In this document: in pieces, positions 4,544-48,730 of the stretch
Layout: the number at the start of each line of letters is the position of its first letter
Position numbering within the stretch: the first letter of the stretch is position 1
Assembly (NCBI GenBank): GCA_000091205.1
Contig: AP006494.2
Length of the DNA: 64,000 bases
Reading direction: 5' to 3' (one strand)
From: Cyanidioschyzon merolae
Taxonomy: Eukaryota
The notes under the pieces: generated by a model
The model's database searches: none
Told to the model about the DNA's origin: nothing
What the model saw: only the letters and a program-made list of their open reading frames with translations
Program-made: the position numbers and the translations under genes

Positions 4544-5889
4544 TGGGCGGGTTTGGTTTTCGAACGCAGCGAGACACCGCAGTTGCAACCAGGTCTTCCG
4601 GAACCGATGAGCGCTTCTGGTTGCTATGGAACTACACAGGAGACGCTTTCGTGGAAGATTGTGGAGAGACAAGTTGCGGAACCCCGGTATGAGGAAGCAG
4701 CACTGCGTCGTATGCGTCTCGCGATGAACTGGTATGCTAAAAGCGGTATCACGGAAGACCCACGCCACGACTCGTGGCGTTTGCTTCGGTAGCGACAGCA
4801 CCTGCCGCTGCTGATGCTGCTGCTGGTGCTGGCGGTGGTGCTGGTGCTGTGCGTTTCGTAGTGAAACGCTTGAAATGAACGGAACGACTCGGGTGGGTAA
4901 GCCACGCAGCACACGAGTCGTAGCCACTGCGTGTGTCTCCTCAGAGCGGTACTCGCTATGTTTGGTTCTCGGCCAAGAGATGTTTCCGCTCACCTGCTGA
5001 GGATTCAAAGGTGTTTCAGGTCGCCGGGGGACCAACTGAGAGGTCAGCGTTTCCGTGAACCGAGACACGCCTCTCTTGGGGCTCGTCCAAACGCTGTTTC
5101 CACTGGCCTGCTGCAGAGCCAGAGGTGTTTGTGCTCGTTGAATAATCGCTCGGGCCAGTCTCCCTCTGGAACCGCTGCTATCTGTGCCGCTTTCCAAACG
5201 TTGCAACGCTCTACCCAGAGCAGAGTGCATTCAAATTGCTCACGAACTAGCCCGACTGCCGGCCCAAACAAGCCCAGAGAACAGCAGAGCACAGGGAACT
5301 CTTGACGGCATTCGAGCCGTTGGCCTTGACCCGTTTCCAGCCGCGACATCCACCGTTGGCTTTCAACGCCTGGACAAACGGACGTTTTGAGCACTGGACG
5401 TTTCAGGCACCCTTGGGATCGTTCACGAGCACGTAGACCTTTTGACACGAATAAAAGGCTTCTTAAGCGCGGAACTTGTCAAGCACATTCGTACTCGGTC
5501 ACGAGGAAACACAACCTCTCTCTGAACACAGAGTTTTAGAAAGAAAGGAGCTTTGCGACCGTTTTGCTTCATTCCCCCGGACTTTACACCGAAGTGTACT
5601 GCAGACCAAGCTCCAAATAAGTTTCCCGTCAGGCAGTGCGCTTGCAGCCTCCGAGTTACGCTTGCTATTGGGCGTATTACTCGCACAACGCTTTCACGAA
5701 CGACTCGGTTGCGCAGCAGCAGATACTTTTGAGGTCTGCTCGCTCGTACGCACTGGGTACGTTGAACGAGCCGCTCGGTTGGGGATAACATCTGCGTTAG
5801 CGCGCTGCGACTAGTTCGTACCTGTCACTGTCCTCTGTTGCACATTATTTTCTGGTCCTGTTGGGCCACCCGTAACGCGACGCTACCAG

Positions 5890-6501
5890 ATGCGTCTGTA
5901 TGCCCTAACGATACTGCGAAGACGCAGTGATGAAACCGAGCCGACGCTTCTGAGCGCTGCCTACGAACTAAGCGACTTTAACTACTTCCAGCGGAGTAGC
6001 GTACGCGAGTTTGCTGCCTTCTTTGCAAAACTGATTGCGAAGCGAGTCACACTCGGAGAGCGCCTATCTGTGGATCACGAGAACTACGTATGTTACGCTT
6101 ACGCTCGTGTGAATGGCGTGATCGCAGTTGCGCTATGCGATGCGGAATATCCACAACGCGTTGCATTTAGTCTCCTGGGGCAGGTCCTGGATGAGTTTCG
6201 CCGAACCTTTCCCGAGTCGCAGTATCTCCAGGTACCTGCAGAAGCGATCCAAGTACGAGAGTTTCCGTACCTCGCGGATCGTCTCCAGAGGTACCAAAAT
6301 CCCGTGGAAGCGGATCCTCTAATGCGGATCGAGAAAGATCTCGATGAGACGAAATCCACCCTGCATCAAACTATCGACAGTATACTGGAGCGCGGCGTCA
6401 AGCTCGATCAGTTGGTGGACAAGAGTAACGATCTTTCATTGCAGAGCAAGATGTTTTATCGCACGGCACGGAAACAGAATAGCTGTTGCAACCTGTCGTA
6501 G
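5890..6501 (+). CDS. YKT6: Ykt6 longin-domain R-SNARE (prenylated v-SNARE)
   Basis: Near full-length colinearity with Ykt6: 'MRLYALTIL...FQRSSVREFAAFFAKLIAKR...VCYAYARVNGVIAVALCDAEYPQRVAFSLLGQVLDEF...RYQNPVEADPLMRIEKDLDETKSTLHQTIDSILERGVKLDQLVDKSNDLSLQSKMFYRTARKQNSCC'. The C-terminal 'CCNLS' is a double-Cys prenylation box. ATG verified. Confidence 0.92.
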   Translation: MRLYALTILRRRSDETEPTLLSAAYELSDFNYFQRSSVREFAAFFAKLIAKRVTLGERLSVDHENYVCYAYARVNGVIAVALCDAEYPQRVAFSLLGQVLDEFRRTFPESQYLQVPAEAIQVREFPYLADRLQRYQNPVEADPLMRIEKDLDETKSTLHQTIDSILERGVKLDQLVDKSNDLSLQSKMFYRTARKQNSCCNLS

Positions 6502-8458
6502 GTGCAGCTGGTTTCGAAGAATGAGCAGAATACGCATCATGGTTTGCTGAAGGTGAGCGCCGTATGAACCTCACCTAGAATAGACCGGCAATGATGCTTG
6601 CAGGTCACTGGCCTTCTTCTCCGAGGAATGCCGTTGAGCGGCATGCTCTTTCCGAAACCGCAAAATCTGCACAGGATCGACGCTTGCCCGTTTCTCGCGT
6701 TGATTCCTGCTAGAAGCTGTGTTTTCTTCCAAGTATGCGCTGTCGGCCCATTACGCGCACGAGCGCAACAGCGCTGTGGCAGTGGACTGCAAAAGCGCCC
6801 GAATTGTTTGACACGTCGAGACTCGAGAGCTGCTCGGAAGGATTGGCCTCGTCGCTTTGTGGAAGTATATACGCGCATGGCGCTGCCGTGCCTGTGTACT
6901 CGGTCCTTATGATGCCGTGGTGCAAAACGCAAACTGTAGCTGCATCCCCGGTATGAGATGCATGTGTGCGAGCCCTGCATAGGGAATCTGTTGCCGGAGA
7001 ATGAGCGGCACTCGCAGCGCGAGCAGCAGCACTTGTATTTCAATCGTTTCCAATATAGATGAGCATGCGTCTTTTGAAGTATGCTCTTTACCAGGGACGT
7101 CTGTTCGCTATCGAGGTGCGCGCTGCGAAGCATCTTATGACCAGTTTCGTGCAGAAGGAGCATGTCCCTTGTCGGAGCGCATGCGGGCATCCCATGACGA
7201 CGCAAGCGGGCGAGCTTGCGTCTGTAAGAATCTACTCCTGGGAGGTGTCCACTGACTTGCCCAGCGATGAACACCTCGGAACGACCATGTTGTTATGGCG
7301 TATCCAAATCCGCTACAGCTGCAAGAATGGAACGTGCTCAGGAAAGTCGTATCTCGCAACTGTCCGAAAGCGTCAACAGCCGAGTTGAGAACTGCATCCG
7401 GATGCGCGCTGTGCACAAATAAAAGTATGAGTTGTTTCGTGCGAAAAAGCTTCAATCACAGCTCTTTCGTAGCAAGTCTCTGGTAGCGTCTACAATGACG
7501 TCAGGGACGCAATCCCCCCCTCAGAGACGCTACGCAGTAGCCAGCCGGCTCCGCGACTGCAGCTGAAGATTCCACACACTTCATATGCGTTTCTCACGGC
7601 GTAGTGGACCAGTCTCCCTCTGTTGCACCAGAGGCGACGCAGCGGCTTTCCGGCGGTTGCACCTGAGCCGGGCCATAATTCCCGTAGATCGGCAGTACGA
7701 ACTGCTACTCGCCAATTCACGATAAAAGTTTTGGGTCGTCCGAACGCTACAAGGGTTTCCGGCGAAGCAGCACGTGAGGCATCGTGAACTGGATCATCCG
7801 ATCTGAACGCATGATCGATCACTGCGAAAGCCTCGAATAGTACAGCGTCCAGGTCACTCGACAGGCATCAGCTTCACGCTCGAATTCAAACCGGATCAGG
7901 TGTGTTACATAGACTGGTATCGTGCCGAAGCATTCTTTCAAAAAACCATCATCAGTCTCTGGGATATCAGGAACAGCGCTTTGCTATGTACAGTGCGCAA
8001 GATCATCATGGAAACGAGCCGTTGTACTGGATACGCTACGCAGGTCATGCTCAGAGTTTCGTTCGTGAAGTTCATGCCTCGATGATCGGTTGCGCTGACG
8101 CACCGCTGCGAGGCTAGGCAGAATCAGCAATCCCGCCACCGGCGAAACGCTGCTTGCTCCTCAACGGCGGCTTAATGGGTAGCCATCGCAAGCGCGATGA
8201 GGTCGGTACCTCGGTGATCGGTGGTGTCCATGCTCCCCGGGCGAGGCTCTGCAGATGCAGCGACGCCGCCGCTTGCTCATTGGACTGTGCTCTGTAGAAC
8301 GCACACCTTTGCTCCTTCAACAGGAATTCCAAGAGAGCCCAAAGACTGCATTTCACAGCGCGTACGCTTCACCGATCGGAACGACAACCAGTCAGGATTG
8401 CGTCCTGGAGATGAGCGCCAACCTCGGTGCTCCCTGCAGGCACGCACCAAAAGCTGCA

Positions 8459-11780: not shown

Positions 11781-11860
11781 GTATCCCGTCGGCTGCGGAT
11801 CAGTTCTGGGCATTCTCGCGCATCGACTCATGTCGGATTCATATAGAACGGATCCATTAA

Positions 11861-12928
11861 CTCTGTCGCACACTCTAGCGTTTGGGCCTCGTTCCCTGGT
11901 CATGAATACCAGCACTTGCGGGTATTTTATGCAACTGCTCCCGCTTTCCTATCCCTATCTCTGACTTTAAATACGCTGGTGTCTCCTTTCCTTACAGCTT
12001 CGTTGTACGAAGACGAAGGATGTTGATCGTGAGATTGGAGCCCCAACTTCGCAGCCCCGATCTGTTGTGCAACTATGCCATGCACACCCGGGAGTTGCGA
12101 TCTACGGTTCGCATGCCACTTGCATCTCCCTAGTATACGGAAACAGTGCGCCCTTCACGGCTGCGAAACTTGAATATGGTCAGGGGTATCCCATGGTTCC
12201 CCGCTGGCCCTCCGAGCACCACTACATGGCGCGTGAACGCCCGTTTCATCGCTCGGTACATGCCCTTGACGGATGTAGGAGGATTGTATGGAAGCGTCGC
12301 TTAGCGTCTGCACCCGGTGGCCGTTCCAAGCGATCACGGGCTGCCTCTGGGTGATACGTGCTCCACTTACGTCCTCGGTGCACTGCATATGCAAACACGT
12401 GTAGTCGCATTTTTATGACGTGACTTGTGGAACGCATCGTTGTCCATCATGCAACAGGTATCGGGAGGAGAATCCAGGTTCGGGATCCAGTCCAGCACTA
12501 CCGATTCGTCTGGACTCCACTCCTGCAATGCAGAGTCAGACGCTGCACCGGCGGCGGTCGCTGTGATGACTCACGTCCGAGTCCGAGGCCACATCGACGC
12601 AAAATGAGGACTTGAGAGCGTCCGGGAGCATCGCCGCTGCGTCGAGTCATGCTGCCGCCACACGTCATTTTGTCGATGCGCGCCACGAGAAAACGACGCG
12701 TGTTTCCAAAGCAAGCGATTGGTTGGAGTGAAAGGTTCAATAAATTAGCTGAATGAGGTTGTGAGCAATTCGTCAACCGCCAATGTCGAGAATTTTTTGT
12801 CGTTCATCCAACGGAGCGAATCGCAGCGTCCTCGAGTTGCCCCGGAATACAATGATCAAAATCGTGGGGTGAACGTGATTCGAGCATGCCACAAGTAAGG
12901 GGAGAAGTCGAGTGGAGGCTCTTGTATA
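11861..12928 (+). repeat. Dispersed ~1.07-kb repeat, copy A; direct repeat of copy B (29525-30590) at about 99% identity
   Basis: Base-by-base comparison of 11861-12928 with 29525-30590 gives about 12 mismatches over ~1045 bp. The embedded 95-aa ORFs 12067..12354 and 29731..30018 differ at 2 residues. Both copies begin 'ctctgtcgcacactctagcg'. Confidence 0.9.
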
Positions 12929-13346
12929 AAAATTCTATTGTGATCTCCGTTATCTTACGAACTCTTACCCGAGAGGCGTCGCGAATCATCTCAGTTCCTG
13001 TCACCAAACGCGTCCCAGCAACACGGAGTCGGACACGACACTTCAAATCGACGACAGAGCGTCCTAAAACTCGTATAAATCAGTAAACACCAACTGGTCG
13101 CACATCGGATCATGAGAATGCACATGTAAGAGTGAGCGAAAAGAACGAAGTGCAGAAACAGAGCGCCCAGTACAATGGACAATTTTCATTTGAAATAGCT
13201 CGTCGATGAAACAAAAGTTCATGTAAGATAAATGAATTCCGGCAGGGAGATGCTTCTCAGCCTTTTCGGTAGGCCCGCTGCTATTGGTTTGCGCTTCTCC
13301 TGGTAATCATCGAGCCTGAGAGGCTGCCCTACGATGTTGGCTCGCG

Positions 13347-15412
13347 TCAGCTCTGCGGGCTCGTCTCCAGCACCGCACACCGTCTGATATTGAAGGCCGC
13401 GTCAAAGTCCCGGTTCACAAACTCAACGCGTTTCTTTCTGTTGGTGTAACACACCAATTCAATGAGTCCTCGAACTCGTGCCCTCATTGCCATTTGTTCT
13501 CCTGTCAGATCTCTGTACTCTTGTAAATCCTCCGGGCTCCGCTGGCACTTTTCCATCTAGACCTCCTGATGTGTACACCCCAGCTCATGGTGCATATAGA
13601 ACGTTCGGAAATTCATCAATGGGTATTGTGACAAAACCGTGTGCGCACTTCTTATACGTTCTTGTCGTTGGAGCTGGTGTACACCCTTTTTTCGACATCC
13701 AGCGCCCTACTCCGTATGCTACTTCGAGCCTTTGATCCTTGTCCGCCTTGAGGGCGCTAAACTCACTGAAAAATTTCGTGAATGCACCCTCTTTCCTCCG
13801 TACAGTTTCATGCGCAGACGAGTCCACCGGGGCTTTGCGTACTCTTGCCACAACTCCTCGTCATGAGCAGCTTGAGTTTCTATGAATTCTAGAAAAGCTT
13901 CAAAGTCCGCTCCTCTGCTCGCCACCTGGCTGATCACTTCCAGGTGCTCCTTCACTGCTGAACTCAACGTCTCACTTTCCATCGTCGCATTCATTACTCC
14001 CTAGTCTCTATCGTATCTCGCTCTTTCGGACTTTAAGGAAACGTACGTCTTTTGGGGTAAGCTGCCGTCGATACGATATTCCCCATGCTTGGATGCTGCG
14101 ATGGTCATGATAGTCGTGTTCCCGGGGTACGGGCCGATTACGACAAAGGCGTTCTTGTCTATCTCCTGCGTCACAGGACCCGCCTGCTTTTTTTCATCGT
14201 GCTTTGCCGAGGGCGATATCGAAAACACAACAGGACGATCCGCCTTCAACAGCCGATCGTGTACACATATGGCTGTTCCATCGGTTTCGATCATCCCAGT
14301 AAATACCTTTTTCTTGCTCGTATTGAGACGTTTGAAATCGAAGATATTCTTCCAGTCCGTCTCTCGGTTTCCGCCGGTAACTCTGTTTTCCTTACATCGA
14401 ACTCCGGACAGATCTCCTTCATGATGCTGTAAATGGCGCTGGAGTCGATGGTCACAAAATGTGACTTGATGTTGCATAACGGAACGACAGTGAAGCGCTT
14501 CTCCATTAGGAAAGATATCCGTTCCAATGAACCTGCTTTTTTCTCAAACCCAGCTGCATCCCCGCCTTGCGTTCAAGTTCTCGCTCCGAAGAAAAAAGAA
14601 ATAGCACAGGATGAGGGGATAGCATCTTTTTCCATCTTTCTTCATATCTGATGCCTTTTCTGCAGGGTTGACACGCCCCAAGATTGCACCGTGCTCTTTC
14701 ATAGCCGCACGGATTACAGAAGCTTCATTCTTGCTTCTGCGTGATATCCTCTTGTCAACTAATTCGATCTCCTATTCATGCTGGCAATCGTTCGTGATGC
14801 CATCGATGATGGCCCGTATCCATTTGCAAGAGAGGCCCGGGTAGCGTGTCAAGACGCAGCGTATCATGAAGCGTTTGAGATTCACAATCATATGGCTATT
14901 CCGGTTCGTGAGGTCCTTCATCGCCCCGTATTCGTAAATAGGCGAGTCAGCTTTGTATCGAGTGTCGTTGACGCGGTATTCGGCGTAATTTTCGCGCAGG
15001 GCATGCACTCGCTCATCTCTCCACAACAGGTCCCTTGTACCAAGCATCAGGTGGCTGAGAAAGCTCTTGTTGAAAAATTGTTTCGGATTCTCGACTGTTT
15101 TTATGTCCGTTACATCCTCTTCCAGCTCCTTCACCAAATACATTGATCCAGTAGACGCTTTCCAAGTTCAAATCGAGTAAGACGTCACATGTTTATGATC
15201 CACTCTTGCATCTTTTGCTTATAGGGATCCTTGATGTAACCTCCACGAAAAGCTTTGACCACCACCTCGTCGTATTGTCGTCTGCCGTCTAGCTTTCGAA
15301 GGCCGGCCTCCTGCCTCCGATCCTTCGTCTTCTCCTGTTCCGCTTTCCTCGGCACTGTTTTTTCGTCTCCGGCAACTGGTGACATCAGACTACCTGGATC
15401 CTCAGCTTCCAT
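13347..15412 (-). pseudogene. TnpB/Fanzor-like RuvC nuclease remnant (element 3), fragmented across frames
   Basis: ORF 13347..13556 ends in the RuvC-III signature 'LIELVCYTNRKKRVEFVNRDFDAAFNIRR' (D at 13409-13407). ORFs 13585..13851, 13719..13994, 14001..14477, 14291..14527, 14772..15143 and 15185..15412 are colinear but frame-shifted ORF pieces on the same strand, with a possible degenerate RuvC-I '[10 protein letters not shown]'. The segment is AT-richer than the flanking genes. Confidence 0.5.
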
Positions 15413-16556
15413 GTCCTTAACTTTCCTTTAATTATTTCTGAAAACGAACGCTCTTTGAATGCTTCTGCTATAAATCGCGAAAATCACTTTGATGCCCTAA
15501 TCTGAGAATGGAACACAACTGCATTGAAAAACGATACTTTGCTATGGGTGTAACGCAAATATATGTTGTACGCCAGAGCAACATACTGATAATATGGATC
15601 GGGTTTCTCTTCAACGGGGAAATGCGCTTCGTCTCTCATGCCGGCCAGGTATGAAGGTGCGAGTATATACCGCGCTTTATCGAAAAAAGAACAGAAACTG
15701 ACTACCAACTAGAAACTCGATAAAAACTTCGTTCCAGCACTGAGATACCCATTATAATTGGGAGCATTTTCTGTATTTTCGAAAGTCTTCCTTCTAGACG
15801 AGGGTCCCGCGAGTTGGACGATTCTGCCGGGCTAGTGCATCATGATCCCCAGTGGCGGATGCTGTAGTTAGACCTGGGCAGCTCATCCGAAACGCAATTC
15901 ATTCTGGGGCTATGAGCGGTTATGCCGTGTCTGGGCATCGTTCAGGTCTCAGTGGTCTCCTATCACATGGCTTTGCACCGCTGCATAGAGTACGTCTATT
16001 TGCACAAATTGGAGGCTCTCATCTTGATGATGGATCACGATTCTGTGACTAATGAACCACATCTTGAGCCGAGGCCTTCAGTGGTACAGCAATGCCGATC
16101 TGTATCCGTGCAGCACCGCAGCACCGGAATAAGCGCTATAGCGGGTGCAGGAAAGCGGGTATTCGGTGCACGATAGATCATACAAAACAACCAGTATATC
16201 CGAGAGGAACTACGGATGATAGAACCTCGAGGTGGGACGCAGCTTTATGGACGCTCCCGAATGCCAGTATCCATCCCGCACGCTGGGCTCCGTAGTCTAC
16301 GGAAACGAATCGCCAAACCAAAAATTCAGCAAAAAATCCTCAGGACAAGTCAGTACAAATTTATCAATAAAGATACTAAATGGAACCTGCCGCTGGATCG
16401 CTCCTGTCTGAAGCGCTGACGAAGCACTTGATTCGCAGCGTTGCGTAGCCTCCCCGCTGAGACGCAGTGCAGCGAAGCAGGTCCGTGGCTCCTACCTACC
16501 CGAAATAGGGTTCCTGTTCCGGTTAGGAAAGAGTGAAGGTTGGGTAAGCAGAATTC

Positions 16557-18482
16557 ATGAACGTTTTCGAGGAGGAAATTGCGAGAGCGGTGGCTCTTAC
16601 CGAACGGGCAGTGCTGACGCGGGAGCCGCGCCTCATCGCCCGTGTCCTGCGCTCGCTGGGGAAGCTAAGACGGTGCTGGAACGGAAGACTCTTTGAGCAT
16701 CGTACCAAGAAACTTGAGGCCCTTGTTGCATCTGAAATCATTGCGGTTGATCTCTTTCCAGAGGACGCCGAGGCGCTGAAAGAGGAGCAAAGAAAGAAGC
16801 AGCGGGCACGTCAAACGTCCAGTACCGGCGCTGAGCAGACCGGCACCGACTCGACGAAGACGGGTCAGAAAACAGGAACGCCCGACGAAGCATCAGAGAC
16901 ACCAGTCGAAGAGACTAACGGTAAATCCGAACGAGAGCTTGGCGCTGTTCAGCGTTTCGAGTACGCGGTGAAGGACCCGGTGCTCGCTGCACAGCACGCG
17001 CATGCCGCACTTCGCCGGCTACTGGAGCGGTTGGAGCAAGGCGACCCGAGCGCACACAACGCAGTCTTGCTCGAAGATGTAGATGCGGCACTAGAACCGC
17101 TCTTGTCACGTAACCAACGCGCCGCCGCTGCGGCGAAGGGCCTTGGCGTGGTGCAGCCTTTGGCTGCTACGCGGTCCGAGGCTAGTATGATCTTGTCGAA
17201 CGGGGTTTCGACGGATTCGCAGCCAAACGAAACAGCTGCTGCTGGACTAACGAAGCAAAATGCAAACGCTCGCCAAATGTCTGGAGTATCGTGGCATGCG
17301 CTTCAACCGGAGAGCCTCGTGCTTTTGCATCTGCTTGTCGTCTACTACCTGCTCGACGCACATGGTGACCATAAGCTGCAGCTCCGTGCCGTGGACTGCG
17401 CGGATCGCCTGATTTCGCTCTTGGATCGAAGTCCTCGGCGACATACCATGGACGAAATCGCAGCACGCTGCTACTATGCTTTTACGCTGGCCTACGAATG
17501 CGTTGGACGTCTTTCGGAATGCCAACCGCGCTTGCTGAAGGCTTATCGCACTGCTTGCGTTCGTCGCGATCACGCTGGTCAAGCCGTGCTCTTGAATCAG
17601 CTGCTTCGCTCCTATGTTCTGGAACGGCGCTACGCGCAAGCGGATCAATTGTACAATCGCGCTCCATTTCCCGACATTCGGAGCAACAGTCAGCTGGCTC
17701 GCTATTTCTACTACATCGGACGAGTGAAAGCTATACAACTGGATTACACAGAGGCATTTCGTTGCTTGAATAACGCGCTGCGCAAAGCGCCTCAGCACAT
17801 GGCGACTGCGTTCCGGATAACGATTCTGCGATTGCTGGTACTGGTCCAGTTGCTCATGGGCGAAATTCCAGAGCTCCAAGTATTTCTTGGAGAGCGCTAC
17901 GCTCCTGATGCTGCTGTATTTCGGCGAGCCATGTACCCTTACTTGCAGATTGCAAACGCAGTACGTCGCGGTGATCTCCAACGTTTTCAGCAAGTACTTG
18001 AGGAGAATGCCACCTGCTATGAACAGGACGGCAATGGCTATCTCGTTCGGCGACTTCGCCACAATGTCATCAAGACTGGACTTGCTCGCATCGTGGCTGC
18101 CTACGCCCGCATTCCTCTGAAGGAAGTTCAGGAGATTCTGGGCCTGGATGATAGCTCCAGCACCGAGAATGTGGTGGCGAAGGCCATTCGTGATCGGGTC
18201 ATTCGGGCAAATATTGATCGGGATCAACAGTGTCTCGTGTCGGCGAGCCAAACTGACCAGTACCAAGGTCGCGAGCCGGCACGTATGTTCCATGAACGGA
18301 TTCAGTTTTGTATGGACCTCCATGAAGAGGTACTTCGCGCGATGCGCTTCCCAGACGACAAAAGAAACGAAGCCAACCTCGAGATCTTGCGCGAGATGCA
18401 ACGCGATGAGGCCAAGATCGAGCAGGCGCTCGCTGAAGGAGCAGAACCCGGCGACGAGGACGATACCGATGATATCCTCTAA
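16557..18482 (+). CDS. RPN3: 26S proteasome regulatory (lid) subunit Rpn3/PSMD3, PCI domain protein
   Basis: The full-length 641-aa ORF carries the PCI-domain block 'LLRSYVLERRYAQADQLYNRAPFPD...ARYFYYIGRVKAIQLDYTEAFRCLNNALRKAPQ...GYLVRRLRHNVIKTGL...' typical of Rpn3. ATG verified at 16557. Confidence 0.9.
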   Translation: MNVFEEEIARAVALTERAVLTREPRLIARVLRSLGKLRRCWNGRLFEHRTKKLEALVASEIIAVDLFPEDAEALKEEQRKKQRARQTSSTGAEQTGTDSTKTGQKTGTPDEASETPVEETNGKSERELGAVQRFEYAVKDPVLAAQHAHAALRRLLERLEQGDPSAHNAVLLEDVDAALEPLLSRNQRAAAAAKGLGVVQPLAATRSEASMILSNGVSTDSQPNETAAAGLTKQNANARQMSGVSWHALQPESLVLLHLLVVYYLLDAHGDHKLQLRAVDCADRLISLLDRSPRRHTMDEIAARCYYAFTLAYECVGRLSECQPRLLKAYRTACVRRDHAGQAVLLNQLLRSYVLERRYAQADQLYNRAPFPDIRSNSQLARYFYYIGRVKAIQLDYTEAFRCLNNALRKAPQHMATAFRITILRLLVLVQLLMGEIPELQVFLGERYAPDAAVFRRAMYPYLQIANAVRRGDLQRFQQVLEENATCYEQDGNGYLVRRLRHNVIKTGLARIVAAYARIPLKEVQEILGLDDSSSTENVVAKAIRDRVIRANIDRDQQCLVSASQTDQYQGREPARMFHERIQFCMDLHEEVLRAMRFPDDKRNEANLEILREMQRDEAKIEQALAEGAEPGDEDDTDDIL

Positions 18483-19537
18483 TAGTGCTCAGCTATGACG
18501 TATAAATGATTTCGCATGGTATTCGAGAAGCACACCAGAGGGTCCTGCATCCATGCCGTGCGAAATGCATGGTGACTTCGGCGTTGACCGCACGCCTATA
18601 TTCAGAGCAATGCGGTCTGGAGCACAGCTGCAGTCGCGCGTTTTTGTTGGCTTGGTTTTTTGACGGGCTTTCGGAAGAGAAATCTATCTTTTAGAGTGGA
18701 GAAAACTGGCGGAAAGCTTTTAGGGTGTCATTGCTAGCTGGCGAGAAATGGCCTGACTTGCTCAAGCCAGACATTTTACGGTCAGCAACTGGATGAACCA
18801 ATGTGCTCTTGGTGCCTATTCTGAACGTTGCGTGCCGAAAACGGGGCAAACGGAACCCAGTAAACACATGGTTATCTGCTGATCAATCCATTCCATTGCA
18901 TACGTAATCTGGGAAACACCACAACAGAACGCATAGTTTGTGATACTTCCGTGCCGTTGGTCCCAAACGATGATGAAATGGTGTGGACGGACAAGAAAGA
19001 AAGTACTTTTCTCTTGATGATCGACGAGATCTGAACAACATATGACCGATTTCGTAGTAAGAACGGAACCGCGTACCACAGGAGGCACTAGTCTTTGTCT
19101 TACGTGGCGAGAGTTTATCCGGGAAAAGTGGTAGACCTGCATATGTGTACTGAACTAAAGACAAATCCGATGTTCGCAAAGAAGAGGCAAACGAGCATTC
19201 CGAAACCATCAGCACCAGTGGCGATGCTATCCTATGGTCGTCAACAAGTCGCCAAAAGGATACGATCGTTCTATAGCGCATGCTTCATCGACGCTTTGTG
19301 CGACATTATCTTCGCATACTCCGCTAGTCTGCTCTCAGAGTGCGTATCATTCCGCAACCCAGAAGTATTTGAGGACTATGCTGGTTAGATTGGTGCTCAG
19401 CTGATCTCTGTGCCAGGCTATTCGCGATGGAGCACACCGGTCGAAGGCGAGTCCTCCTATGCCGAACGTCCTTTCTATGCTGAAGAATCAATAGACGGGT
19501 ATTTCGCATTTTATCGAAAGCGAAAGCTACGGGACGC

Positions 19538-20146
19538 TAGGAATGATCGAGCAGCTTCGTACTCGAGGGAGGCTCATCTGGCATTCCTCGCCTCGACGTA
19601 GCTCGCTCAGCAAATATCCGCAGGAGCTCTGGACGCAGCTCTGCAAGCTGTCCAGATTCTTACGGAATTTATCCATCAAACTTTCGTGCTTGAACACAAC
19701 GCATGTTCGAGACAGAAGATGCAGCACGGCCTGACCGTTGGACCAGAGATTTGCACATGCGCTTCGCGGAAAATTCTCGACGCTCCGCAGTGCGACGTTG
19801 CCGGTCGAAGCGTCTCCAGCACAGGTGTCAAAAAGGTTCAAACACGCCTGAAAATCCTAAACTGTATATTGTTCAATGTCGAGGGCGTCGTGAATTTCGC
19901 CTCGTGGGCGTTGCACCCGCAGCACACTGACCCAGACATATGGGCTCTGGAGGAAGGAACTCTTGGCGTGACAACGGGCGCGAATGACGAGCTGTTGCCA
20001 AAAGAGATCAAAGAGGTAGCGAGCATCGACGAGATGTTGCAGCCAGAGCGAGCGTCGCTTCAGATCATCGGATCTTATCGTGTTGCTCTTGATCTCGGAA
20101 CGATGGGCGTCGTATGCAAAGGACGCTTCAAACATGAGGTCTGCCT
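19538..20146 (+). repeat. ~610-bp segment about 97% identical to 40446-41052 (inverted), shared by Fanzor-like copies 1 and 2
   Basis: The DNA and the embedded ORFs are near-identical: 19686..20180 '+' against 40202..40894 '-' (MLEHNACSRQKMQHGLTVGPEIC...IIGSYRVALDLGTMGVVCKGRFKHEVCL) and 19543..19734 against the end of 40846..41325. Both flanks diverge sharply beyond these coordinates. Confidence 0.85.
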
Positions 20147-20911
20147 TCCATTGACAAGCCGTACTATGACGTTTTCCTGAACAAAGCCCTCGAGAGCAAA
20201 CAGGATGTTCGCCCCGATGCCGAGCGCTCGGATCTTGCTCAGGCGTTTATTTAATCTGGTATCTATGTGGCACTTCAAGACCCTGCGGATCAGTGTAGAC
20301 ACTTCTGTATTGTACGGAATGACCTGTTCAATGCGGCACGGCTACTCTCTTGAAGCAAATATAAAGCTTTCGAACAAATTCGCAAGCAGCATTGGCGGAG
20401 ACGATCCAAGTTCCTCGTTTACGAGGGGGGATTCGGAACCGAGTCTCTTTCCAGGAGGTGCGCACTCGCCAACTTGTTCAATATTCTCGAAATGGAAATG
20501 ACCGATAAGCCGCGTCGCTCTTATTGGCAGCGAATGGCGCTGCCCGTGCTGTATTCCACGAAAGCCGCACCCCGACTCTACCGACGACAGCGACAAACGT
20601 TTGCAGGAATCGATTCTGTACGATCTCTGTCGATAAGTACAGGGCGCCGGATACCTCCCATGACCGGAGCATATGACCACGCTGAAACTGGTACAGAAGC
20701 AGAGTCGAAACCGAACCGCAGTCACGAAACGGTCGACTCTCATTTGAGCTAACTCCAGGTATCGAGACAATTTGAGTTTACTGCCCTGTTAAAATGTGAT
20801 TGCGCAAGCAACCAAGCGCACAAGCATATGCTGCATCGAGACCTGAACGCCTCGATCAACATTGCGAAATGTGTCGTGCTGCAGGAGCCTCAAACGGCAC
20901 TGTGTCGATAA
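19538..20911 (+). pseudogene. TnpB/Fanzor-like RuvC nuclease (copy 1) with RuvC-I, RuvC-II and RuvC-III recognisable but interrupted
   Basis: Frame 0 (19602-20180) gives '...LQIIGSYRVALDLGTMGVVCKGRF', a RuvC-I GxDxG-like motif with D at 20091-20093. Frame 2 gives 'LFNILEMEMTD' (RuvC-II glutamate at 20489-20491) followed by 'YWQRMALPVLYSTKAA'. After an in-frame TAA at 20750-20752, frame 2 continues with 'KCDCASNQAHKHMLHRDLNASINIAK' (RuvC-III, 20834-20869), and the stop is at 20909-20911. Confidence 0.65.
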
Positions 20912-22184
20912 AACTTTCGATGGAATCTTCTCGGGCTCCTTACAGGCGTTCTGTTGAAATGGGTAAGACTTTCAATGAGAAACAAAAGTATCAGCCATTA
21001 GAGGGGCGATTCCTTGCCCGACTGTATCCGGGCACTGGTATGAACCTGGTCAGCAATCCAGCAAGGCCTGGACGCCGTCTCTCTATATTCGGGGAACGAG
21101 TTTCCCGAGCGACTGGTGAACGACAATCCGAATCCGTTCTGCCATACTACTTAGCGTGCAAGGACCGAGCGTCCACGAAACTGGTCGTCGAGTGGAACCC
21201 ATCGCTTTGAGTACATACGCTCATGGATGGCGTGCGGAAAGCACTCGTGCGCTGCCGGCCCTGTGCAGCATTCATGAGCGACGCATCGCTTCTAATGCTC
21301 TCGCCTCCACGAACCAGATTGGAAGCACTCGTGCTCTGCGGGTATCGTCTTACACCCACGAGAACCCGACCCTGACAGAATGGTGGAAGCAGCAGCGTCC
21401 ACCGCAGAACGATAAACGCACATGGTGTCGCACGAAAGACGCAAATGATCGTTTCGAACGACGTTTGTGTGCTCAGGATCGTCTTGCGAACATCTGTTGC
21501 GAAACCCTTCCCATATACCCACCCGGTTCCATATCCAGAGCATGCCTCTAAGCAGTGCAGAGCTGTAACTGCAAGCGCGCCCTACACAAACACCCGTGGT
21601 ATCTTGCAACGATCAACAGTCGCTGCCGCCTTCGGATGCTTCTTGATGGCACGAATCGAGCAGCCGAAGCGAGCTTCACTGCTCATCCGCGCTTAGTGAG
21701 GTCTCTGCATACACGTGATCCGCTAAACGTTGTTTTCATAGATGCATGTAAAGCGCGTCCACCAGGACCTGGACATGCCCCGCGCCAAAAAGTCTCCGCG
21801 GATTGCGGAGCGCTTTCTGTGAGCTCGCCAGCGACAAGCGCTTCTTGTTGCAGAGTCATGCTGTACTAGGTCTCTTTATTCGTGTGGCGTTGAGCGTGAG
21901 TACGCTTAAAACAGTACCGAACTCGCCATGAGGTTCGCTTGTACACAACGCGCTCCGGTTTCGCGTGGAAAGCTTTATCGCCGGATCTGCATCGAACGCA
22001 GCTGGGCGCCGGTAGAGGGCGCTCATCTCCATTGCCGCCAGCGTCTATGATCCATTGCACATGCAAACTGGCACGCTGTCCAGTCCAGGTAGGTTCCGAC
22101 GCTGTACGCGGCAGGCAGGCAGTTTGGACACTACGAAGGCAACGACCGTCCGAAGCGTGCATCGAAACCACGATAGGTTCGCGT

Positions 22185-24326
22185 TCACACAACGGGTAGC
22201 TCATCCTCTAGATCGGCGTACGAGAACAAAAAGTCTTGCCTCACTCTTTGACACCACATTTGGTGATCAAAGTAGACATATGACCCTGATTCATAGTCAT
22301 CGGTCGTGAACCGGGGCTCTTCATGGCGCTGGAACCACGTCAAGTATCGTTTGTGGAAACGCCAAGCATGGCGTTTCAACTCAAGAGCAGCGAACAACTG
22401 ATGCCGTGGATTCTGTGGGAAGAAGAATATGAAGAACAGTGTGTCTGGATCGAGACGCTCGTACAGCTCTGGACTGTCCAAAGCTGCCAGAGGTGACTGC
22501 GGAAACGACCCGTGAACCGGAAACGGATTTCTAGGCTCATACCGAACTTGTTCTCGTTGCAGGGGCGCTGCAGCAGATTTGTTCTGGCGGGATGCTCCTA
22601 TTCCCGGGTTGGTACCGTTGGCTGAAGGCGCTGTTAGATAGAGTGCACCTTCTTCTAGTTGGCGCAGTGCTGTCAGCAGGGTTCGCGAGGCGATAGGGTC
22701 CGAGTCCACCAGTGCGGCATCGCCTGCGAGAAGCGCTGCTTCAAGTCCGCTACGTTCAGATGCATCCCGACCGGGGTCTTCGGGCGCCATCGATGCTGTA
22801 GCCGCTGTTGCAAATGCGTCACCACGGGAGCCCTGCAGATGGCCAAACTGCTGTGCCAATGGGACGCTTGCTCCGAGTCCAGCTGCCAGGGAAGACACAT
22901 TCATAGACACTGCGGATCCCTCGGGTGCACAGGTTCGCGAGTTCATCTGGTCTCCAGATTTCGATGGGTACGGGGACCGGAAAGGCGTTGCGGCGGTTGC
23001 CACCGTAGCTCCTGCACTCGTCCGAGAGTTCGACTCCAAGGACCCGCGATCAGCGTTGTCGACCTTAGAGACCATCACCGCCGCTAGAGCGTTAGCATGT
23101 GTGTCTCTTCCAGGTGGCAATCGTTGAACACTCGTTGGCATCTGGGGAGTGCTCTGCAACCCGAAAGAACCAAGCAAAGTGCTTGGATCCGTGGGTGTTG
23201 GCGTCTGGGGTGCAGCGCTCTGCTTCGATAACAGTACCGTAACAGGCTGTTGCTGGTTTGCCCAGGCCGAAGTCACTGGTCCGGCGGTGCTGCGCGGTCG
23301 ACCAGGACCTCCGGATGCGCCACCATCCGAGCCCAAAGCTCCGCCAATGGAAAGGTCTTCTTTGGATGCTGCCGCTTTGTTGTTCTCCTGTTCCGATGGA
23401 GGTCGTTTCGACTCGGATACGTCGCTGTTTTTTCGTCGCGAATCCTCTACGGGTGTCTGCGCTACACCTGCGGCTCCTGGTGTCGATGAATCTCGAGGTC
23501 GCCGTCCATCGTCCTCAGATTTGCGCTTCGCCTCACTTTCTTTTCTTTCAGCGTTTTCTGCTTCACTGGGCTTGCTCTCCGGCGCATGCTCCGTATCCTC
23601 CTTTGGCTTTGGAATATGAGAAACCTGAATCTCAACCGGGACCTCGAGCGTAAGCGCGTCGTATATACCCTCATCCTCCAGAAATCCATCTTCCGTATTC
23701 GCCTCGACATAGTACTCAACACTGTCTCTGATTTCATTCACGTCGTCACAATCGGCCGCATCGTTATCGAGCGCCCTAAGAATTCGCTCGAGCATCTCTA
23801 TATGATACTGGTGTCGCGCGATTTTCGCTCGCAGAGCATCCACAGCCATATGATCAATCTTCTTCTTCTTCGCGCTACTGACGGAAGCCTCAATATCCGC
23901 TTCGCGTTCTTCGATTTGAACTTTGAGCTTCTCGATGCAGTCTCTGACCCATTCGCGAACCTCGTTCTTCGACTTTTCAAGGGGGTCTGCCCGGTCCTGT
24001 GCCAGACCTTCCTTGCTGAACGCCTTCGTTTTCGTTTCTCTCTCACAGACTTTAAAAGCTTCCATTTTCTCTTCAATCTTCTTCCGGGCAACATCGATTT
24101 TGCTTTTGTCTTTGATTGAGGGGTCCGCTTGCCACACTTTGATTTGATCGCGAAGACGTTGCAGTTTTTTGATCTGCGACTTCAAGTCCGCTTCAAACTT
24201 ATCCCTTTGTGCAAGGTTTTGCGCAGCGTACACCTTATCCCAGATCTCGTTGAACAGGTCCAGACCTTCTTCGACTTTCTTGAGCGTGCGGTCGATTTCC
24301 GCTTGAAGTTTTCTGTTTGTTGCCAT
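22185..24326 (-). CDS. NOT3: CCR4-NOT complex subunit 3 (NOT3/NOT5 family)
   Basis: The N-terminus 'MATNRKLQAEIDRTLKKVEEGLDLFNEIWDKV...LKSQIKKLQRLRDQIKVWQ...FKVCERETKTKAFSKEGL...IARHQYHIEMLERILRALDND' tracks human CNOT3 nearly residue for residue. The C-terminal NOT-box is 'FFIFFFPQNPRHQLFAALELKRHAWRFHKRYLTWFQRHEEP'. The track start at 24359 is GTG; the ATG is at 24326-24324 (verified). Confidence 0.92.
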   Translation of the reverse strand: MATNRKLQAEIDRTLKKVEEGLDLFNEIWDKVYAAQNLAQRDKFEADLKSQIKKLQRLRDQIKVWQADPSIKDKSKIDVARKKIEEKMEAFKVCERETKTKAFSKEGLAQDRADPLEKSKNEVREWVRDCIEKLKVQIEEREADIEASVSSAKKKKIDHMAVDALRAKIARHQYHIEMLERILRALDNDAADCDDVNEIRDSVEYYVEANTEDGFLEDEGIYDALTLEVPVEIQVSHIPKPKEDTEHAPESKPSEAENAERKESEAKRKSEDDGRRPRDSSTPGAAGVAQTPVEDSRRKNSDVSESKRPPSEQENNKAAASKEDLSIGGALGSDGGASGGPGRPRSTAGPVTSAWANQQQPVTVLLSKQSAAPQTPTPTDPSTLLGSFGLQSTPQMPTSVQRLPPGRDTHANALAAVMVSKVDNADRGSLESNSRTSAGATVATAATPFRSPYPSKSGDQMNSRTCAPEGSAVSMNVSSLAAGLGASVPLAQQFGHLQGSRGDAFATAATASMAPEDPGRDASERSGLEAALLAGDAALVDSDPIASRTLLTALRQLEEGALYLTAPSANGTNPGIGASRQNKSAAAPLQREQVRYEPRNPFPVHGSFPQSPLAALDSPELYERLDPDTLFFIFFFPQNPRHQLFAALELKRHAWRFHKRYLTWFQRHEEPRFTTDDYESGSYVYFDHQMWCQRVRQDFLFSYADLEDELPVV

Positions 24327-26477
24327 AGCACGGACCTCCTTGAAGACGAAGAACTCCACCGATATTCATATAAAACTAGCGAGAGCCGAGGCACCAGCTC
24401 CTACCACAGCGCCACTCTCTAGTCCGTTGCGTCCAGTGCAAAAGCTGCAACCGCGACTTGCAGACCGAAAAGTCCAGTGCCTCGACACGGTACGATGTTA
24501 GCGAGCGCGTATGGGCGGCAAGCATCCGTTTGAAGACTATGGCACTTAAATGGACAAAGCAGTCGATTCTGCAGTTTTGTTTCGCGCATGGTTGCGCTGG
24601 ATCGTCGAGATTGCGCGAGCGGGGCACTTGTCGACGAAACGCGTCCAGCGTAGTCAGCGCTTCGCAGGACATGAAGCATCACTGGACGGCATGGAATGTT
24701 TTTCGCCATGTGGACGGAGTGCGCGAAACGCGGGTGTTTCCATCGCAGCAATGATGACCTCGCTTCAATGAAATGACGCGGCATTTGAAAACTTTTGTCC
24801 AGAGGTTTACACATCGACCGTGCGTGTAATCGTTCGAGGAGCAGCGACGTCACTTGTGACTTTTGTGCAACCGATGCGCCGTTGAATTCGAATGACGCGA
24901 CGCTGTTTCGTTCAGAGGATATTCGGGTTGCTCTCTGGAGAGAGCGTAGGGCGTCGCAGGTTCGAAAACGTCGCATCAAGTCTTGAGCATGGCTTGACAT
25001 GGTACGGATACGGCTGCATCATCAAGCATGAGATGAGCTGCTGTGTGTTCGCGATGCAGGATACATGTGGTTTGGAAAATATTTTAGGTCGGCCGCAGCT
25101 GGTGAAATTCTGGACCGTGACCCAATGAGTCTGTGTTGGGAGAAGTGCAACGAGCATGTTTCTGCAAATCCGTATGGGAGGAAATCGCCCGATACGGAAG
25201 AAACCGGAGGATAAAGACTGACGAAAGTATTCAAGCCCTTGGTCAATACCAAATCGGTGTGTTAGAAAAAGGTCAGCACCGTCCCGAATGGCGACGACTG
25301 CGTTCATCCTGCGCCTTTCCAAACTAGCTACCATACGCGATGCGGCATTGCTCGCTAGACACAGCTCTCCCTGCAGCTGAATGCCCCGATACCACGTAAT
25401 TCGTATCTCGTCTTCCAGTCTACATCAAATGGACTCTTTTCGAGCTTGGAGCGCCCGCCGTCCTCCTTGTGCACCAACGATATACCCATTGGCGAATATG
25501 CAGCACCGGCAGCGGGTGCCGGGCACTGCCGAGCACCCAGCTGCGGCACAACGCGACTCTGCAACCAATCAGTACAGAGATGCCTCGCTGATTTCACATG
25601 CCTCCGCTTCTACTTCGAGACACTGCACTCGTGTATGAATGCCCGGTGCTTCCACGCATTCGAGATTCTTCCAGATTCCAGGGCACCAATCTGCATCTTG
25701 ATGAATCTGCATGGACACTTTCATCCGGTGCTGCACGCATGCACGGATGGATACGTTTCCATGCGTGCACAGACAGCACGCATGGACAGCACGCATCCGC
25801 ATGCTGCAGTGCCGCTTATGAACTGCGTTGAGCTTGTAGCACCTGGGTATGCTCTTTTACGTTAGGAGCTGCTCGCTTAGAGAAACTCTACCAAGGTAAC
25901 CATTCTGGGCATCTGGGTTTTTCTATGTCGCTTCGAGAGACGGTTTTATGCTCTGGCCAAGTACGACATAACGAATGCTTGGTGTTCCATCGAGTCGGAA
26001 GCGCGCTTTGTGCAGCGTGTACAGCAACGGCGCGCTTCTTCGTCGTAGTTTCGGCGCTCGTCAAGCATGACGAACGTCCGCACACTCTAACGTACCGTTT
26101 GTGCGCACCTGCCGCGTATAGCTATAAACCGTGTGCTGACGACGAAATAGTCACGCTGGTGGCAGCGACTCGGCAGCGACCTCTGCAGCGTGCGCCGCAC
26201 TGCCCGTGCGGAGCCTGCGTTCGCGCCCCGCCGCTGGGATTGCTGTTCAGTGCGTAGTCAGCAAGCGAGAAATAGACGGCCTCGCACGTCCACACTTGCC
26301 GGACGTTTGCGAGCTACTGGGCCTGCAGCTTGCTAAAAACACTCTGATGGTCGGTTTGAGTGACTTTTGATCTCGTATCAAAGGCACATCCATTGCCTAG
26401 AGCTTCGGGGTGCGTTCCGGTCCCGATAAGCGCCAAGGCGTTTATAGCGAGCGGGACGCGGCAAGCGGGTGTGCTCA

Positions 26478-28230: not shown

Positions 28231-29524
28231 CGTCCGATCGTAGACGACATGTCTAGCGATCTCAAGCCGTCCTCCGTGGTGAGGCGGAAGCAGCGATGCA
28301 GGCCTGCGCCTCGCAAAGACTCCGGTAATGACCATGCTGCACAGCATCCTGGATACCTGGTGACGCAGAGGCGGTCGCTGCTGCTCCGGGAATGCACCAT
28401 AGCGAACACGCGCACAGCCGTTCGCAGCGGCGCTGGTCGAATACAACGCCCACCTGCACGGAAATAACACGCTGGAGAAGCACCAGATGGAGTTACCAAC
28501 AGGCTGCGAATTCGCGGTATCCGTTGTCGTCGTCGCACCTGAGACGTGTTCTGCTCATTGACATGCCCGAACGGAAGCATCCGGACTCGATTTCGTTTCT
28601 CCAGTGCACACCGCAGCTGTGAGATCGTTCCCAGCAGGCCATGAAGCTCGTCAGTCTTCGCATCCGCAGCAGTGCTTTAGGCTAGCAGGTCTCAGCGCAA
28701 ACGGCGCTGCGCGTTATGCTCCACTCGACGTCGTTCTAGGCTGCGCGTTGGCGTCAACTGTCGTCGATGTCGGTGCATCGTGCGGCGTCGCGATGTCAGC
28801 CTGTGGCACCCGCCTTGCACCCGTTAGCTTCATTCGAATTCACGCGTGTCTGGGACACAGCTTTGTAGGCAGCGGCGACGAGTCCGGTGGCGCTTCGGCA
28901 CTGCCAGCAGCAAGCTGCGGTGCCGATGCCATTCCTCCCCATGGCGCCAGACGCATCGCTCGTGAGTGCGAGCTTGCACCAGACCGGGTTGGGGACTGCT
29001 TTTCCTTCTGCCTGCTGTTTTGCTCTATGCATTTTCCGCGTTATTCACTATTTCCAATTTCTGTATCTGGAAACAGTGCAGTACCTCGCGGGCATGACGG
29101 ACGCCGCAGCAGTTTTTTCTGCTCGGTGTTTCGCAGGTTCAAGACGCAAAAGCCTTCGGTTTGCTCTGGTCTGCGCCCCAGTTCAGTCTGCGTAAACCTC
29201 ATAGGCTCTGCTTTCGTTGACACCCGTTAGGGCACAAGGTAATACCTTTCAAGTTTCGGAAACTTGTTGCGCATAGCGGAACGCTTTTCCTGTCGCTGTG
29301 GCAAAGCAGTGTCAGGGATTTCGCCGAAGATCAAAACCTTACCAACCAGCTCCTGTTTCCATCGCCCGAAACAGATCCGAACCGGGATCCGGTACGAAGC
29401 ACGTTCGCAACCTGGATAAGAACGCAAGGCCTAGTTAGATGCAGTGCGAAGCCAAAAAACGTTGTTTCTGTTCGCTCCTAACGTATTCCAGCAGTCTCAG
29501 ACGATAACGGAACAGGTCTTCTAG

Positions 29525-30590
29525 CTCTGTCGCACACTCTAGCGTGCGGGCCTCGTTCCCTGGTCATGAATACCAGCACTTGCGGGTATTTTATGCAACT
29601 GCTCCCGCTTTCCTATCCCTATCTCTGACTTTAAATACGCTGGTGTCTCCTTTCCTTACAGCTTCGTTGTACGAAGACGAAGGATGTTGATCGTGAGATT
29701 GGAGCCCCAACTTCGCAGCCCCGATCTGTTGTGCAACTATGCCATGCACACCCGGGAGTTGCGATCCACGGTTCGCATGCCACTTGCATCTCCCTAGTAT
29801 ACGGAAACAGTGCGCCCTTCACGGCTGCGAAACTTGAATATGGTCAGGGGTATCCCATGGTTCCCCGCTGGCCCTCCGAGCACCACTACATGGCGCGTGA
29901 ACGCCCGTTTCATCGCTCGGTACATGCCTTTGACGGATGTAGGAGGATTGTATGGAAGCGTCGCTTAGCGTCTGCACCCGGTGGCCGTTCCAAGCGATCA
30001 CGGGCTGCCTCTGGGTGATTTGTGCTCCACTTACGTCCTCGGTGCACTGCATATGCAAACACGTGTAGTCGCATTTTTATGACGTGACTTGTGGAACGCA
30101 TCGTTGTCCATCATGCAACAGGTATCGGGAGGAGAAACCAGGTTCGGGATCCAGTCCAGCACTACCGATTCGTCTGGACTCCACTCCTGCAATGCAGAGT
30201 CAGACGCTGCACCGGCGGCGGTCGCTGTGATGACTCACGTCCGAATCCGAGGCCACATCGACGCAAAATGAGGACTTGAGAGCGTCCGGGAGCATCGCCG
30301 CTGCGTCGAGTCATGCTGCCGCCACACGTCATTTTGTCGATGCGCGCCACGAGAAAACGACGCGTGTTTCCAAAGCAAGCGATTGTTTGGAGTGAAAGGT
30401 TCAATAAATTAGCTGAATGAGGTTGTGAGCAATTGGTCAACCGCCAATGTTGAGAATTTTTTGTCGTTCATCCAACGGAGCGAATCGCAGCGTCCTCGAG
30501 TTGCCCCCGAATACAATGATCGAAATCGTGGGGTGAACGTGATTCGAGCATGCCACAAGTAAGGGAAGCTGAACTTTGGAGGTTCGCACA
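29525..30590 (+). repeat. Dispersed ~1.07-kb repeat, copy B (direct repeat of copy A)
   Basis: See copy A. It lies 17.66 kb downstream of A in the same orientation. Confidence 0.9.
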
Positions 30591-48530: not shown

Positions 48531-48730
48531 CAGAACGTTTCCTGTGATCATGCATCCCAGAATGTACCATGAAGACTGGCATTCGGCAGAGCGTCCATCA
48601 TGTTGTACCCTACCTACAAGGTTCCATGACTCCGACATGCTCCCCGAAATACCAAGAGACTGCCGCTTGCGCTCAGCAGAACGTTTCCTGTGATCATGCA
48701 CCCCAGAATGTACCACGAATACTGGCATTC
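48531..48730. repeat. Two copies of a ~64-bp direct repeat (48531-48594 and 48667-48730), 220-420 bp upstream of the VPS13 start
   Basis: 'cagaacgtttcctgtgatcatgcaTcccagaatgtaccaTgaaGactggcattc' against 'cagaacgtttcctgtgatcatgcaCcccagaatgtaccaCgaaTactggcattc'. Confidence 0.85.

Follow-up and report, generated by a model that had tools for sequence, protein, structure and literature searches.

The gap between the convergent genes RPN3 and NOT3 in a 64-kb stretch of Cyanidioschyzon merolae DNA (termed the window, and the part of the genome covered by this analysis) most probably holds the remains of a now dead DNA transposon with two genes, one for a DDE_3 (Tc1/mariner-type) transposase and, downstream of it in the same orientation, one for the RuvC nuclease Fanzor1; we place the probability of this reading at about 0.9. 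An earlier note on this DNA had taken positions 19538-20911 for a TnpB/Fanzor-like nuclease gene with three legible RuvC motifs. The superfamily was rightly recognized and is specified here as Fanzor1 by fragment matches (E = 2.8e-14, 1.8e-8, and 1.3e-6) to a family that itself matches Fanzor1 structures in the PDB. The interval named omits the upstream half of the element, the transposase relic at 18682-19514, and the copy is not the candidate programmable nuclease that was proposed, because the RuvC-I segment is physically deleted and the RuvC-II glutamate is mutated to lysine.

Homology of the Relic to Fanzor1

The reference family was built from another locus in the window, a broken gene on the minus strand at 13.2-16.3 kb (copy A), which is much better preserved than the relic. 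The stitched translation of copy A has 93 strong homologues with E-values down to 1e-127, sharing the motifs 'ADPGNTNI', 'VDEFRTS', and 'NRDFNAAIN', and a profile search over 1.84 billion representative proteins enlarged the family to 1462 members, 58 of which, diverse and full-length with 600-700 amino acids, form alignment A2. Invariant in A2 are the aspartate of DPG, the glutamate of VDEF, and the aspartate of NRD, the first two being D421 and E592 in the numbering of P0096, the protein closest to the relic. The A2 profile matches the Fanzor1 structures of Parasitella parasitica (PDB code 9cf0, E = 7.7e-20), Spizellomyces punctatus (8gkh, 3.7e-11), and Guillardia theta (9cer, 2.3e-6), and PF07282 matches 32 of the 58 members. 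The AlphaFold (AF2) model of P0096 calculated on A2 has a pLDDT of 88 and a pTM of 0.86, and the top seven Foldseek matches of this model in the PDB are all Fanzor1 (SpuFz/PpFz/GtFz) with E-values of about 1e-17 (1.5e-17 with TM-scores of 0.62/0.70) and TM-scores of 0.53-0.73 overall, Cas12 and Fanzor2 being at least 12 orders of magnitude weaker. With the shallow alignment A1 the AlphaFold pLDDT was 38 and the profile found no Fanzor in the PDB, both of which were remedied by the deeper A2. A published analysis distinguishes Fanzors from ordinary TnpBs by the DPG form of RuvC-I and by a glutamate immediately ahead of the zinc-finger position (PMC10711439). The reference family is Fanzor1.

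The relic aligns with this family on the plus strand in collinear pieces. Nucleotides 19515-20360 match residues 68-344 of P0096 (blastx, 26% identity over 291 amino acids, 70.9 bits, E = 2.8e-14), and 20384-20917 match residues 518-683 (52.0 bits, E = 1.8e-8); the C-terminal segment is also 43% identical to residues 574-629 of P0111 (blastx). A close-family profile of 31 homologues of CMe-1 type (see below for CMe-1A), run against the complete set of 2101 stop-to-stop segments in the window, places 20181-20498 at profile positions 311-340 (E = 0.055), 20509-20673 at 601-647 (E = 2.2e-4), and 20753-20908 at 681-723 (E = 1.2e-3). The A2 profile finds the RuvC-III segment with E = 1.3e-6 (24.2 bits) and the 20509-20673 segment with E = 5e-3, and tblastn links 20521-20664 with 20669-20917 at E = 1.4e-9. 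Judged by these alignments, the relic descends from a Fanzor1 gene.

Several negative searches would fit motifs that arose by chance in plain intergenic DNA. The stitched translation of the relic, for which a profile check had been suggested, gives in Pfam only the C-terminal end of PF07282 (Cas12f1-like_TNB, E = 0.15), in a match confined to the 15 residues around 'HRDLNASINI', and nothing in NCBIfam; phmmer of its C-terminal half finds nothing in the PDB, and a word-indexed search of 5.8 billion proteins finds no homologue of the stitched copy-1 protein at E<=1. Because that search included the C. merolae proteome, no annotated gene matches the stitched protein. Two of the three motifs quoted in the earlier note are also coincidental, as described below. 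Against chance stand the significant and collinear matches of the separate fragments, together with a control in which the real sequence scores 21.1, 17.0, and 10.9 bits and 200 dinucleotide-preserving shuffles of 19500-21000 reach 5.9 bits at most, and an adjacent transposase placed in the order of the intact relatives. Chance is vanishingly improbable.

RuvC Motifs and Lesions

The N-terminal (REC-like) region of Fanzor1 occupies 19515-20363 (+) in frame 0 and is broken by the stops TAG 19599-19601 and TGA 20178-20180 (tblastn of P0018 residues 22-205, E = 0.002). It contains the string 'VALDLG' (20082-20099, Asp at 20091-20093), which had been read as RuvC-I and which, as part of 'RVALDLG', aligns with 'RAALGLV' of P0096 (residues ~253-259), 'RAVLGLA' of CMe-1, and 'RxxLGL' of the A2 consensus, a conserved but non-catalytic N-terminal R..LGL motif. 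The real RuvC-I has been deleted. At the junction, 20363-20369 (+), the frame changes from 0 to 2 and about 173 residues (P0096 345-517) have been lost, among them the TDG motif and the DPG aspartate D421. High-scoring segment pairs with P0096 end at residue 344 (nucleotide 20360) and resume at residue 518 (nucleotide 20384), and those with CMe-1-type proteins end at nucleotide 20363 and resume at 20369. Neither the family profiles nor tblastn find a match to the DPG region on either strand of the whole gap, 18483-22185. The string 'DFVVRTEPRTT' at 19024-19080 was considered as this region and rejected as a weak look-alike, lying in the transposase frame and aligning to the transposase.

Downstream of the junction, a helical segment at 20369-20518 (+) in frame 2 is homologous to the non-catalytic 'WEEYTKPRWARLRMNLYGG..FANFFNQLSALKEDENQR' of the family (P0028 residues 305-345, tblastn E = 1.9e-4). 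It carries 'FNILEMEMTD' (20477-20506, Glu at 20489-20491), proposed earlier as RuvC-II, which tblastn aligns with 'FFNQLSALKEDENQR', a non-catalytic helix. The true RuvC-II segment lies in another frame, at 20509-20673 (+) in frame 1, where 'LLAANGAARAV..RNRFCTISVDKYRAPDTSHD' faces 'LVVAYGAGRW..RRFVTIPVDEFRTSYTHHE' of the family and the RuvC-II strand reads 'RNRFCTISVDKYRAPDTSH' with 'RRFVTIPVDEFRTSYTHH' as its family counterpart. In 'VDKYR' of the relic a lysine (AAG, 20635-20637) replaces the invariant glutamate (E592 of P0096), the codon being one G-to-A transition from GAG. The C-terminal segment, 20663-20968 (+) in frame 2, comprises 'AYDHAETG', the in-frame TAA at 20750-20752 that had already been noticed, 'LLKCDC', the RuvC-III box HRDLNASINIAKCVVLQE, and TAA 20909-20911. 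RuvC-III ('HRDLNASINIAK') is retained with its catalytic aspartate at 20840-20842, and the assignment of 'HRDLNASINI' (20834-20863) to RuvC-III was correct.

All three strings quoted in the earlier note are therefore present where it placed them, and only the last is a catalytic motif; by alignment, the other two are chance look-alikes on non-catalytic homologous positions. The reading path runs through frames 0, 2, 1, and 2, with three changes in place of the single change from frame 0 to frame 2 described before, and in-frame stops at 19599, 20178, and 20750 precede the C-terminal end, the further stop at 20909 lying near the natural terminus. Compared with an intact nuclease the relic has RuvC-III and lacks the RuvC-I DPG, the RuvC-II glutamate, and an uninterrupted open reading frame (ORF) of ~600-750 amino acids. 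Stops, frame changes, and deletion bear out the description of the ORF as broken and the copy as decaying.

The well preserved RuvC-III and the collinearity of all pieces on one strand would also be expected of a live Fanzor1 gene in which splicing or programmed frameshifting removes the stop and the frame changes, and splicing had been offered as an alternative to decay. Splicing is no rescue because the ~173 missing residues, with RuvC-I among them, are absent from the whole gap. Such a gene would also have a lysine for the invariant glutamate, and its rescue would take three or more frame changes as well as the removal of three stops. C. merolae is said to have only a few dozen introns, as Matsuzaki et al. 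reportedly described in 2004, and this was counted against a live spliced gene. With the lack of any homologue of the stitched protein at E<=1 and a divergence between strains well above that of the flanking genes (see below), a live gene is extremely improbable.

The lack of a zinc finger is of a different kind from these lesions. The A2 consensus, P0096, and CMe-1 have no canonical CxxC...CxxC between RuvC-II and RuvC-III, and the relic ('..LLKCDCASN..') likewise lacks the two CxxC pairs. In the 2013 definition of Fanzor/TnpB proteins the C4 zinc finger is strictly conserved (PMC3627910). From the family alignment, its loss is a trait of the lineage and not a lesion of the relic copy. The AlphaFold model of P0096 nevertheless gives a good superposition with the Fanzor1 structures that have been solved, although this Fanzor1 branch is without the zinc finger.

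The Upstream Transposase and the Two-gene Element

Directly upstream of the Fanzor1 relic, 18682-19514 (+) is a decayed DDE_3 (Tc1/mariner-type) transposase pseudogene with stops and frame changes, which bears out the mobile origin suggested earlier. In tblastn with the transposase of metagenome contig L002, 18682-19092 matches amino acids 1-136 (E = 7.8e-7) and 18885-19505 matches amino acids 68-273 (E = 8.8e-15); a profile of the transposases of three relatives finds 19092-19385 (E = 3.6e-6) and 19389-19598 (E = 1e-4). The same layout is seen in intact relatives. The gene for P0096 on L002 lies just downstream of a 302-amino acid transposase with DDE_3 (PF13358, E = 2.3e-23) and HTH_Tnp_Tc3_2 domains, and a transposase followed by Fanzor1 is found in all three of L002, L003, and L004, also for P0111 and P0102. 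Transposase residue 273 and Fanzor residue 68 are separated by only ~10 nucleotides in the relic compared with ~450 nucleotides in L002, which indicates that a second deletion took the transposase C terminus, the spacer, and ~67 codons from the start of the Fanzor gene. The relic is very probably what remains of a mariner-type transposon carrying a Fanzor1 gene.

Some points weigh against this reading. No plausible pair of terminal inverted repeats (TIRs) and no target-site duplication bracket 18483-21700, so that the ends of the element and its superfamily are assigned from the transposase remnant by itself. The available outside relatives of the relic at the DNA level are strain-level orthologues only. 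An intact paralogue may exist beyond the 64-kb window, and the fragments may be transcribed at a low level. Transposition and RNA-guided cleavage are attributed to the lineage of the relic by analogy with its relatives.

No TIRs are evident in the intact relative L003 either. The L003 unit (transposase 3674-4492, P0111 Fanzor1 4519-6411) is flanked by a 9-nucleotide direct repeat, CTTAAAATG, at 3539-3547 and 6515-6523, ~130 nucleotides upstream and ~100 nucleotides downstream of the unit, which could mark the element ends or be a chance repeat.

Relation to CMe-1A

Fanzor1 has been described before in C. merolae as CMe-1A, a family with a 3169-bp consensus, ~150 copies each ~80% identical to that consensus, a 734-amino acid protein, and no TIRs (Bao & Jurka 2013, PMC3627910). 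The consensus was taken from Additional file 2 of that paper and compared with the window by blastn. Copy A (16307-13317, minus strand) is 78.4% identical to positions 12-3012 of CMe-1A; it is near full-length and lies 3 kb from the locus. It has frameshifts and stops, yet its three RuvC regions are recognizable, including 'IPIDEF' and 'NRDFDAAFNI'.

Such a copy nearby, in the same genome and encoding the same protein superfamily, makes it natural to ask whether the relic is simply one of the ~150 published copies. The CMe-1A consensus has no nucleotide match in 18483-22185 at E<0.01, and at the protein level the relic is ~25% identical to CMe-1, with 38.1 and 40.8 bits compared with 70.9 and 52.0 bits for P0096, with which it shares the lineage-specific matches 'YDHAETG'/'YTHAETG' and 'LLKCDC'/'LLWCDS'. 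The lack of a DNA match, the ~25% identity, and the higher P0096 score together indicate a different, older, mariner-borne Fanzor1 lineage; with a DDE_3 transposase upstream as well, membership in CMe-1A is very unlikely. A mariner-borne Fanzor1 in C. merolae is absent from the listing in PMC3627910, where the arrangement itself is already known.

Decay and the 3' Flank

RPN3 of the window is 100% identical to the protein of C. merolae 10D, and a metagenome scan yields six contigs that share ~99.3% identity with the window. Every lesion of the relic recurs at the orthologous loci L007 and L009, including the stops, the lysine codon, the identical deletion junction, and the frameshift sites. 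An error in the 10D assembly is therefore unlikely for the deletion, the stops, and the lysine, since independent metagenome assemblies have the same lesions. Between strains the relic shows 9.7-13.2 differences/kb compared with 1.8-2.0 in the RPN3 and NOT3 coding sequences (p = 2e-5 and 6e-7), a divergence 5-7 times faster than in the flanking genes. The relic is under neutral decay.

The 3' flank had been named as the place where an omega-RNA scaffold would be expected, a suggestion that finds no support there. Nucleotides 20780-21200 fold no better than their shuffles (z = -0.12), and an Rfam scan gives nothing at the gathering score or at E<=1. An omega-RNA at the relic is neither supported nor strictly ruled out by these results.

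The 614-nucleotide Block and Copy 2

The earlier note spoke of the relic as copy 1, and a second copy does exist. The 614-nucleotide block 19534-20147 (+) has an inverted counterpart of 98.4% identity at 40433-41046 (copy 2); the flanks cannot be aligned at the DNA level, and within the locus this block is the only part that is repeated in a self-comparison of the window. Fanzor homology runs on collinearly beyond the block in both copies. The ten differences between the blocks fall at codon positions 1, 1, 2, 3, 1, 1, 3, 2, 1, and 2, with no third-position bias. At each of them copy 1 has G/C and copy 2 has A/T (sign test p = 0.002). In environmental contigs these distinguishing sites are mosaic between the copies, a pattern suggestive of gene conversion together with a bias that is either directional or mutational.

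The abrupt edges of the block, where an identity of 98% gives way to noise, together with ORFs of 164 amino acids in copy 1 and 230 amino acids in copy 2, could also be explained if the block had been co-opted as a small protein or an RNA. The codon positions of the differences carry no signature of purifying selection, and across strains no other part of the locus changes as fast as the block (14.7-17.9 differences/kb). The variants are mosaic as expected from gene conversion, and the two ORFs end differently. Co-option is highly improbable. The block was also considered as the published TE-N2_CMe element (635 bp) and rejected; it is Fanzor N-terminal coding sequence without a CMe-1A match, and TE-N2_CMe is the 5' 635 bp of CMe-1A, upstream of the ORF start at 906.

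Two metagenome loci, L005 and L008, have reciprocal hybrid junctions in which the flanks of copy 1 and copy 2 are joined through the block (compared with 16256-24147 and 36205-44894 of the window), as expected for flipping of the 20.3-kb segment 20148-40432, and L006, L007, and L009 have the reference arrangement. The hybrids are possibly a real inversion polymorphism or possibly assembly chimeras at the 614-bp repeat, which would look alike. That the inverted blocks are active recombination substrates in natural populations, undergoing gene conversion and a 20.3-kb inversion, with the relic representing a second, mariner-borne Fanzor1 lineage, is a combined proposal that we offer tentatively and consider less than even in likelihood.

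The copy-2 locus, 38272-42314 (-), is a nest of Fanzor1, DDE_3, and CMe-1A-like fragments. Read along the minus strand, it begins with a DDE_3 relic (42314-41486), followed by a Fanzor1 N-terminal region that corresponds to P0096 residues 16-323 (41218-40292). Next come a second DDE_3 relic (40188-39373, E = 7e-19) and a C-terminal fragment of CMe-1A type (39078-38878, 76% identical to the consensus at the DNA level), and last a Fanzor1 middle fragment that is out of order (38769-38272). Just beyond this locus, the DDE_3 profile has another short match at 43719-43946 (-) with E = 4e-5, pointing to a further relic of mariner type.

Genomic Setting and Other Repeats

The relic lies in a 3.7-kb gap between the RPN3 ORF (16557-18482, plus strand) and the convergent NOT3 ORF (22185-24359, minus strand). 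The ORF map and base composition confirm the insertion between these two genes and the lower-GC patch reported before, the GC fraction being ~0.50-0.51 at the locus compared with 0.55-0.57 in the flanking genes. The longest ORF at the relic has 164 amino acids. No tRNA genes were found in the 64-kb window.

Apart from copy A, blastn with the CMe-1A consensus matches 39056-38903 and 48531-48630, and the self-comparison shows that 13278-13483 resembles 38870-39077. The match at 48531-48630 is a CMe-1A 5' end (consensus 7-104, 77%) beside a 62-nucleotide repeat (48524-48585 and 48670-48731, 94%), and 48524-48731 may be a TE-N2_CMe-type remnant. Elsewhere, a direct repeat of 1047 nucleotides (11858-12904 and 29522-30568, 98.6% identity) adjoins with its first copy the 3' end of the CMe-1A copy. 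This repeat has no Pfam match, and the DDE_3-like 'MMDNDAFHKSRH' within it is weak and non-significant (E = 0.13-0.21).

Discussion

The intact relatives of the relic have the same fold as the solved Fanzor1 proteins (SpuFz1, PDB codes 8gkh and 9ceu; PpFz1, 9cf0; GtFz1, 9cer), with DPG, the glutamate of 'VDEFRT', and 'NRDxNAAxNI'. Of the parts of those structures the relic retains, in unchanged order, the N-terminal region, the RuvC-II strand, and RuvC-III, and it differs in having no RuvC-I, a lysine for the glutamate, stops and frameshifts, a branch without the zinc finger, and no detected omega-RNA. TnpB (IS200/IS605 and IS607) and Cas12f share a distant common RuvC core with the relic, for which the only direct Pfam signal is PF07282 at E = 0.15. 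TnpB usually has D-hydrophobic-G at RuvC-I and its glutamate ~50 residues upstream of the zinc finger, whereas the family of the relic has DPG and the glutamate directly before the former zinc-finger position (PMC10711439).

Mariner-type transposons are known to have captured Fanzor1, for example PUl-1 and PUl-2 of Pythium (Bao & Jurka 2013, PMC3627910). These share with the relic a DDE transposase and Fanzor1 in one element, intact in L002, L003, and L004 and decayed in the relic, but have 24-33-bp TIRs and TA duplications (PMC3627910, Additional file 1), neither of which is found for the relic or L003. CMe-1A belongs to the same genome and the same Fanzor1 clade, and its copies are likewise old and diverged with no recognizable TIRs, but it encodes Fanzor1 alone and is unclassified, whereas the relic is preceded by a DDE_3 transposase.

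The history of the locus may be proposed as follows. The element would in the distant past have entered the 3' intergenic region that separates RPN3 from NOT3, two convergent genes. While alive it would, by analogy with its family, have moved by cut-and-paste through the DDE transposase, and its Fanzor1 would have cleaved guide-matching DNA under the direction of an omega-RNA, as do the solved and assayed Fanzor1 proteins. Decay would then have removed the transposase C terminus, the first ~67 Fanzor codons, and the ~173 internal codons and changed the glutamate to lysine, with neutral drift acting on what was left. The relic would now have no role as a nuclease and a passive one only, its 614-bp N-terminal stretch being kept 98% identical to the inverted sister 20 kb away, an identity presumably upheld by ectopic recombination or gene conversion.

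For nuclease discovery the locus has little value, as this copy is catalytically dead and Fanzor1 has been known in C. merolae since 2013. It also carries a caution for the reading of RuvC-like strings, as short matches by eye (D.G, E..., RD.NA..NI) can fall on non-catalytic positions even in a true homologue. Its value for annotation and for the history of transposons is modest; C. merolae was probably once host to a mariner-type Fanzor1 transposon distinct from CMe-1A, the relics of which still shape the genome as likely substrates of gene conversion and possibly of a 20-kb inversion.

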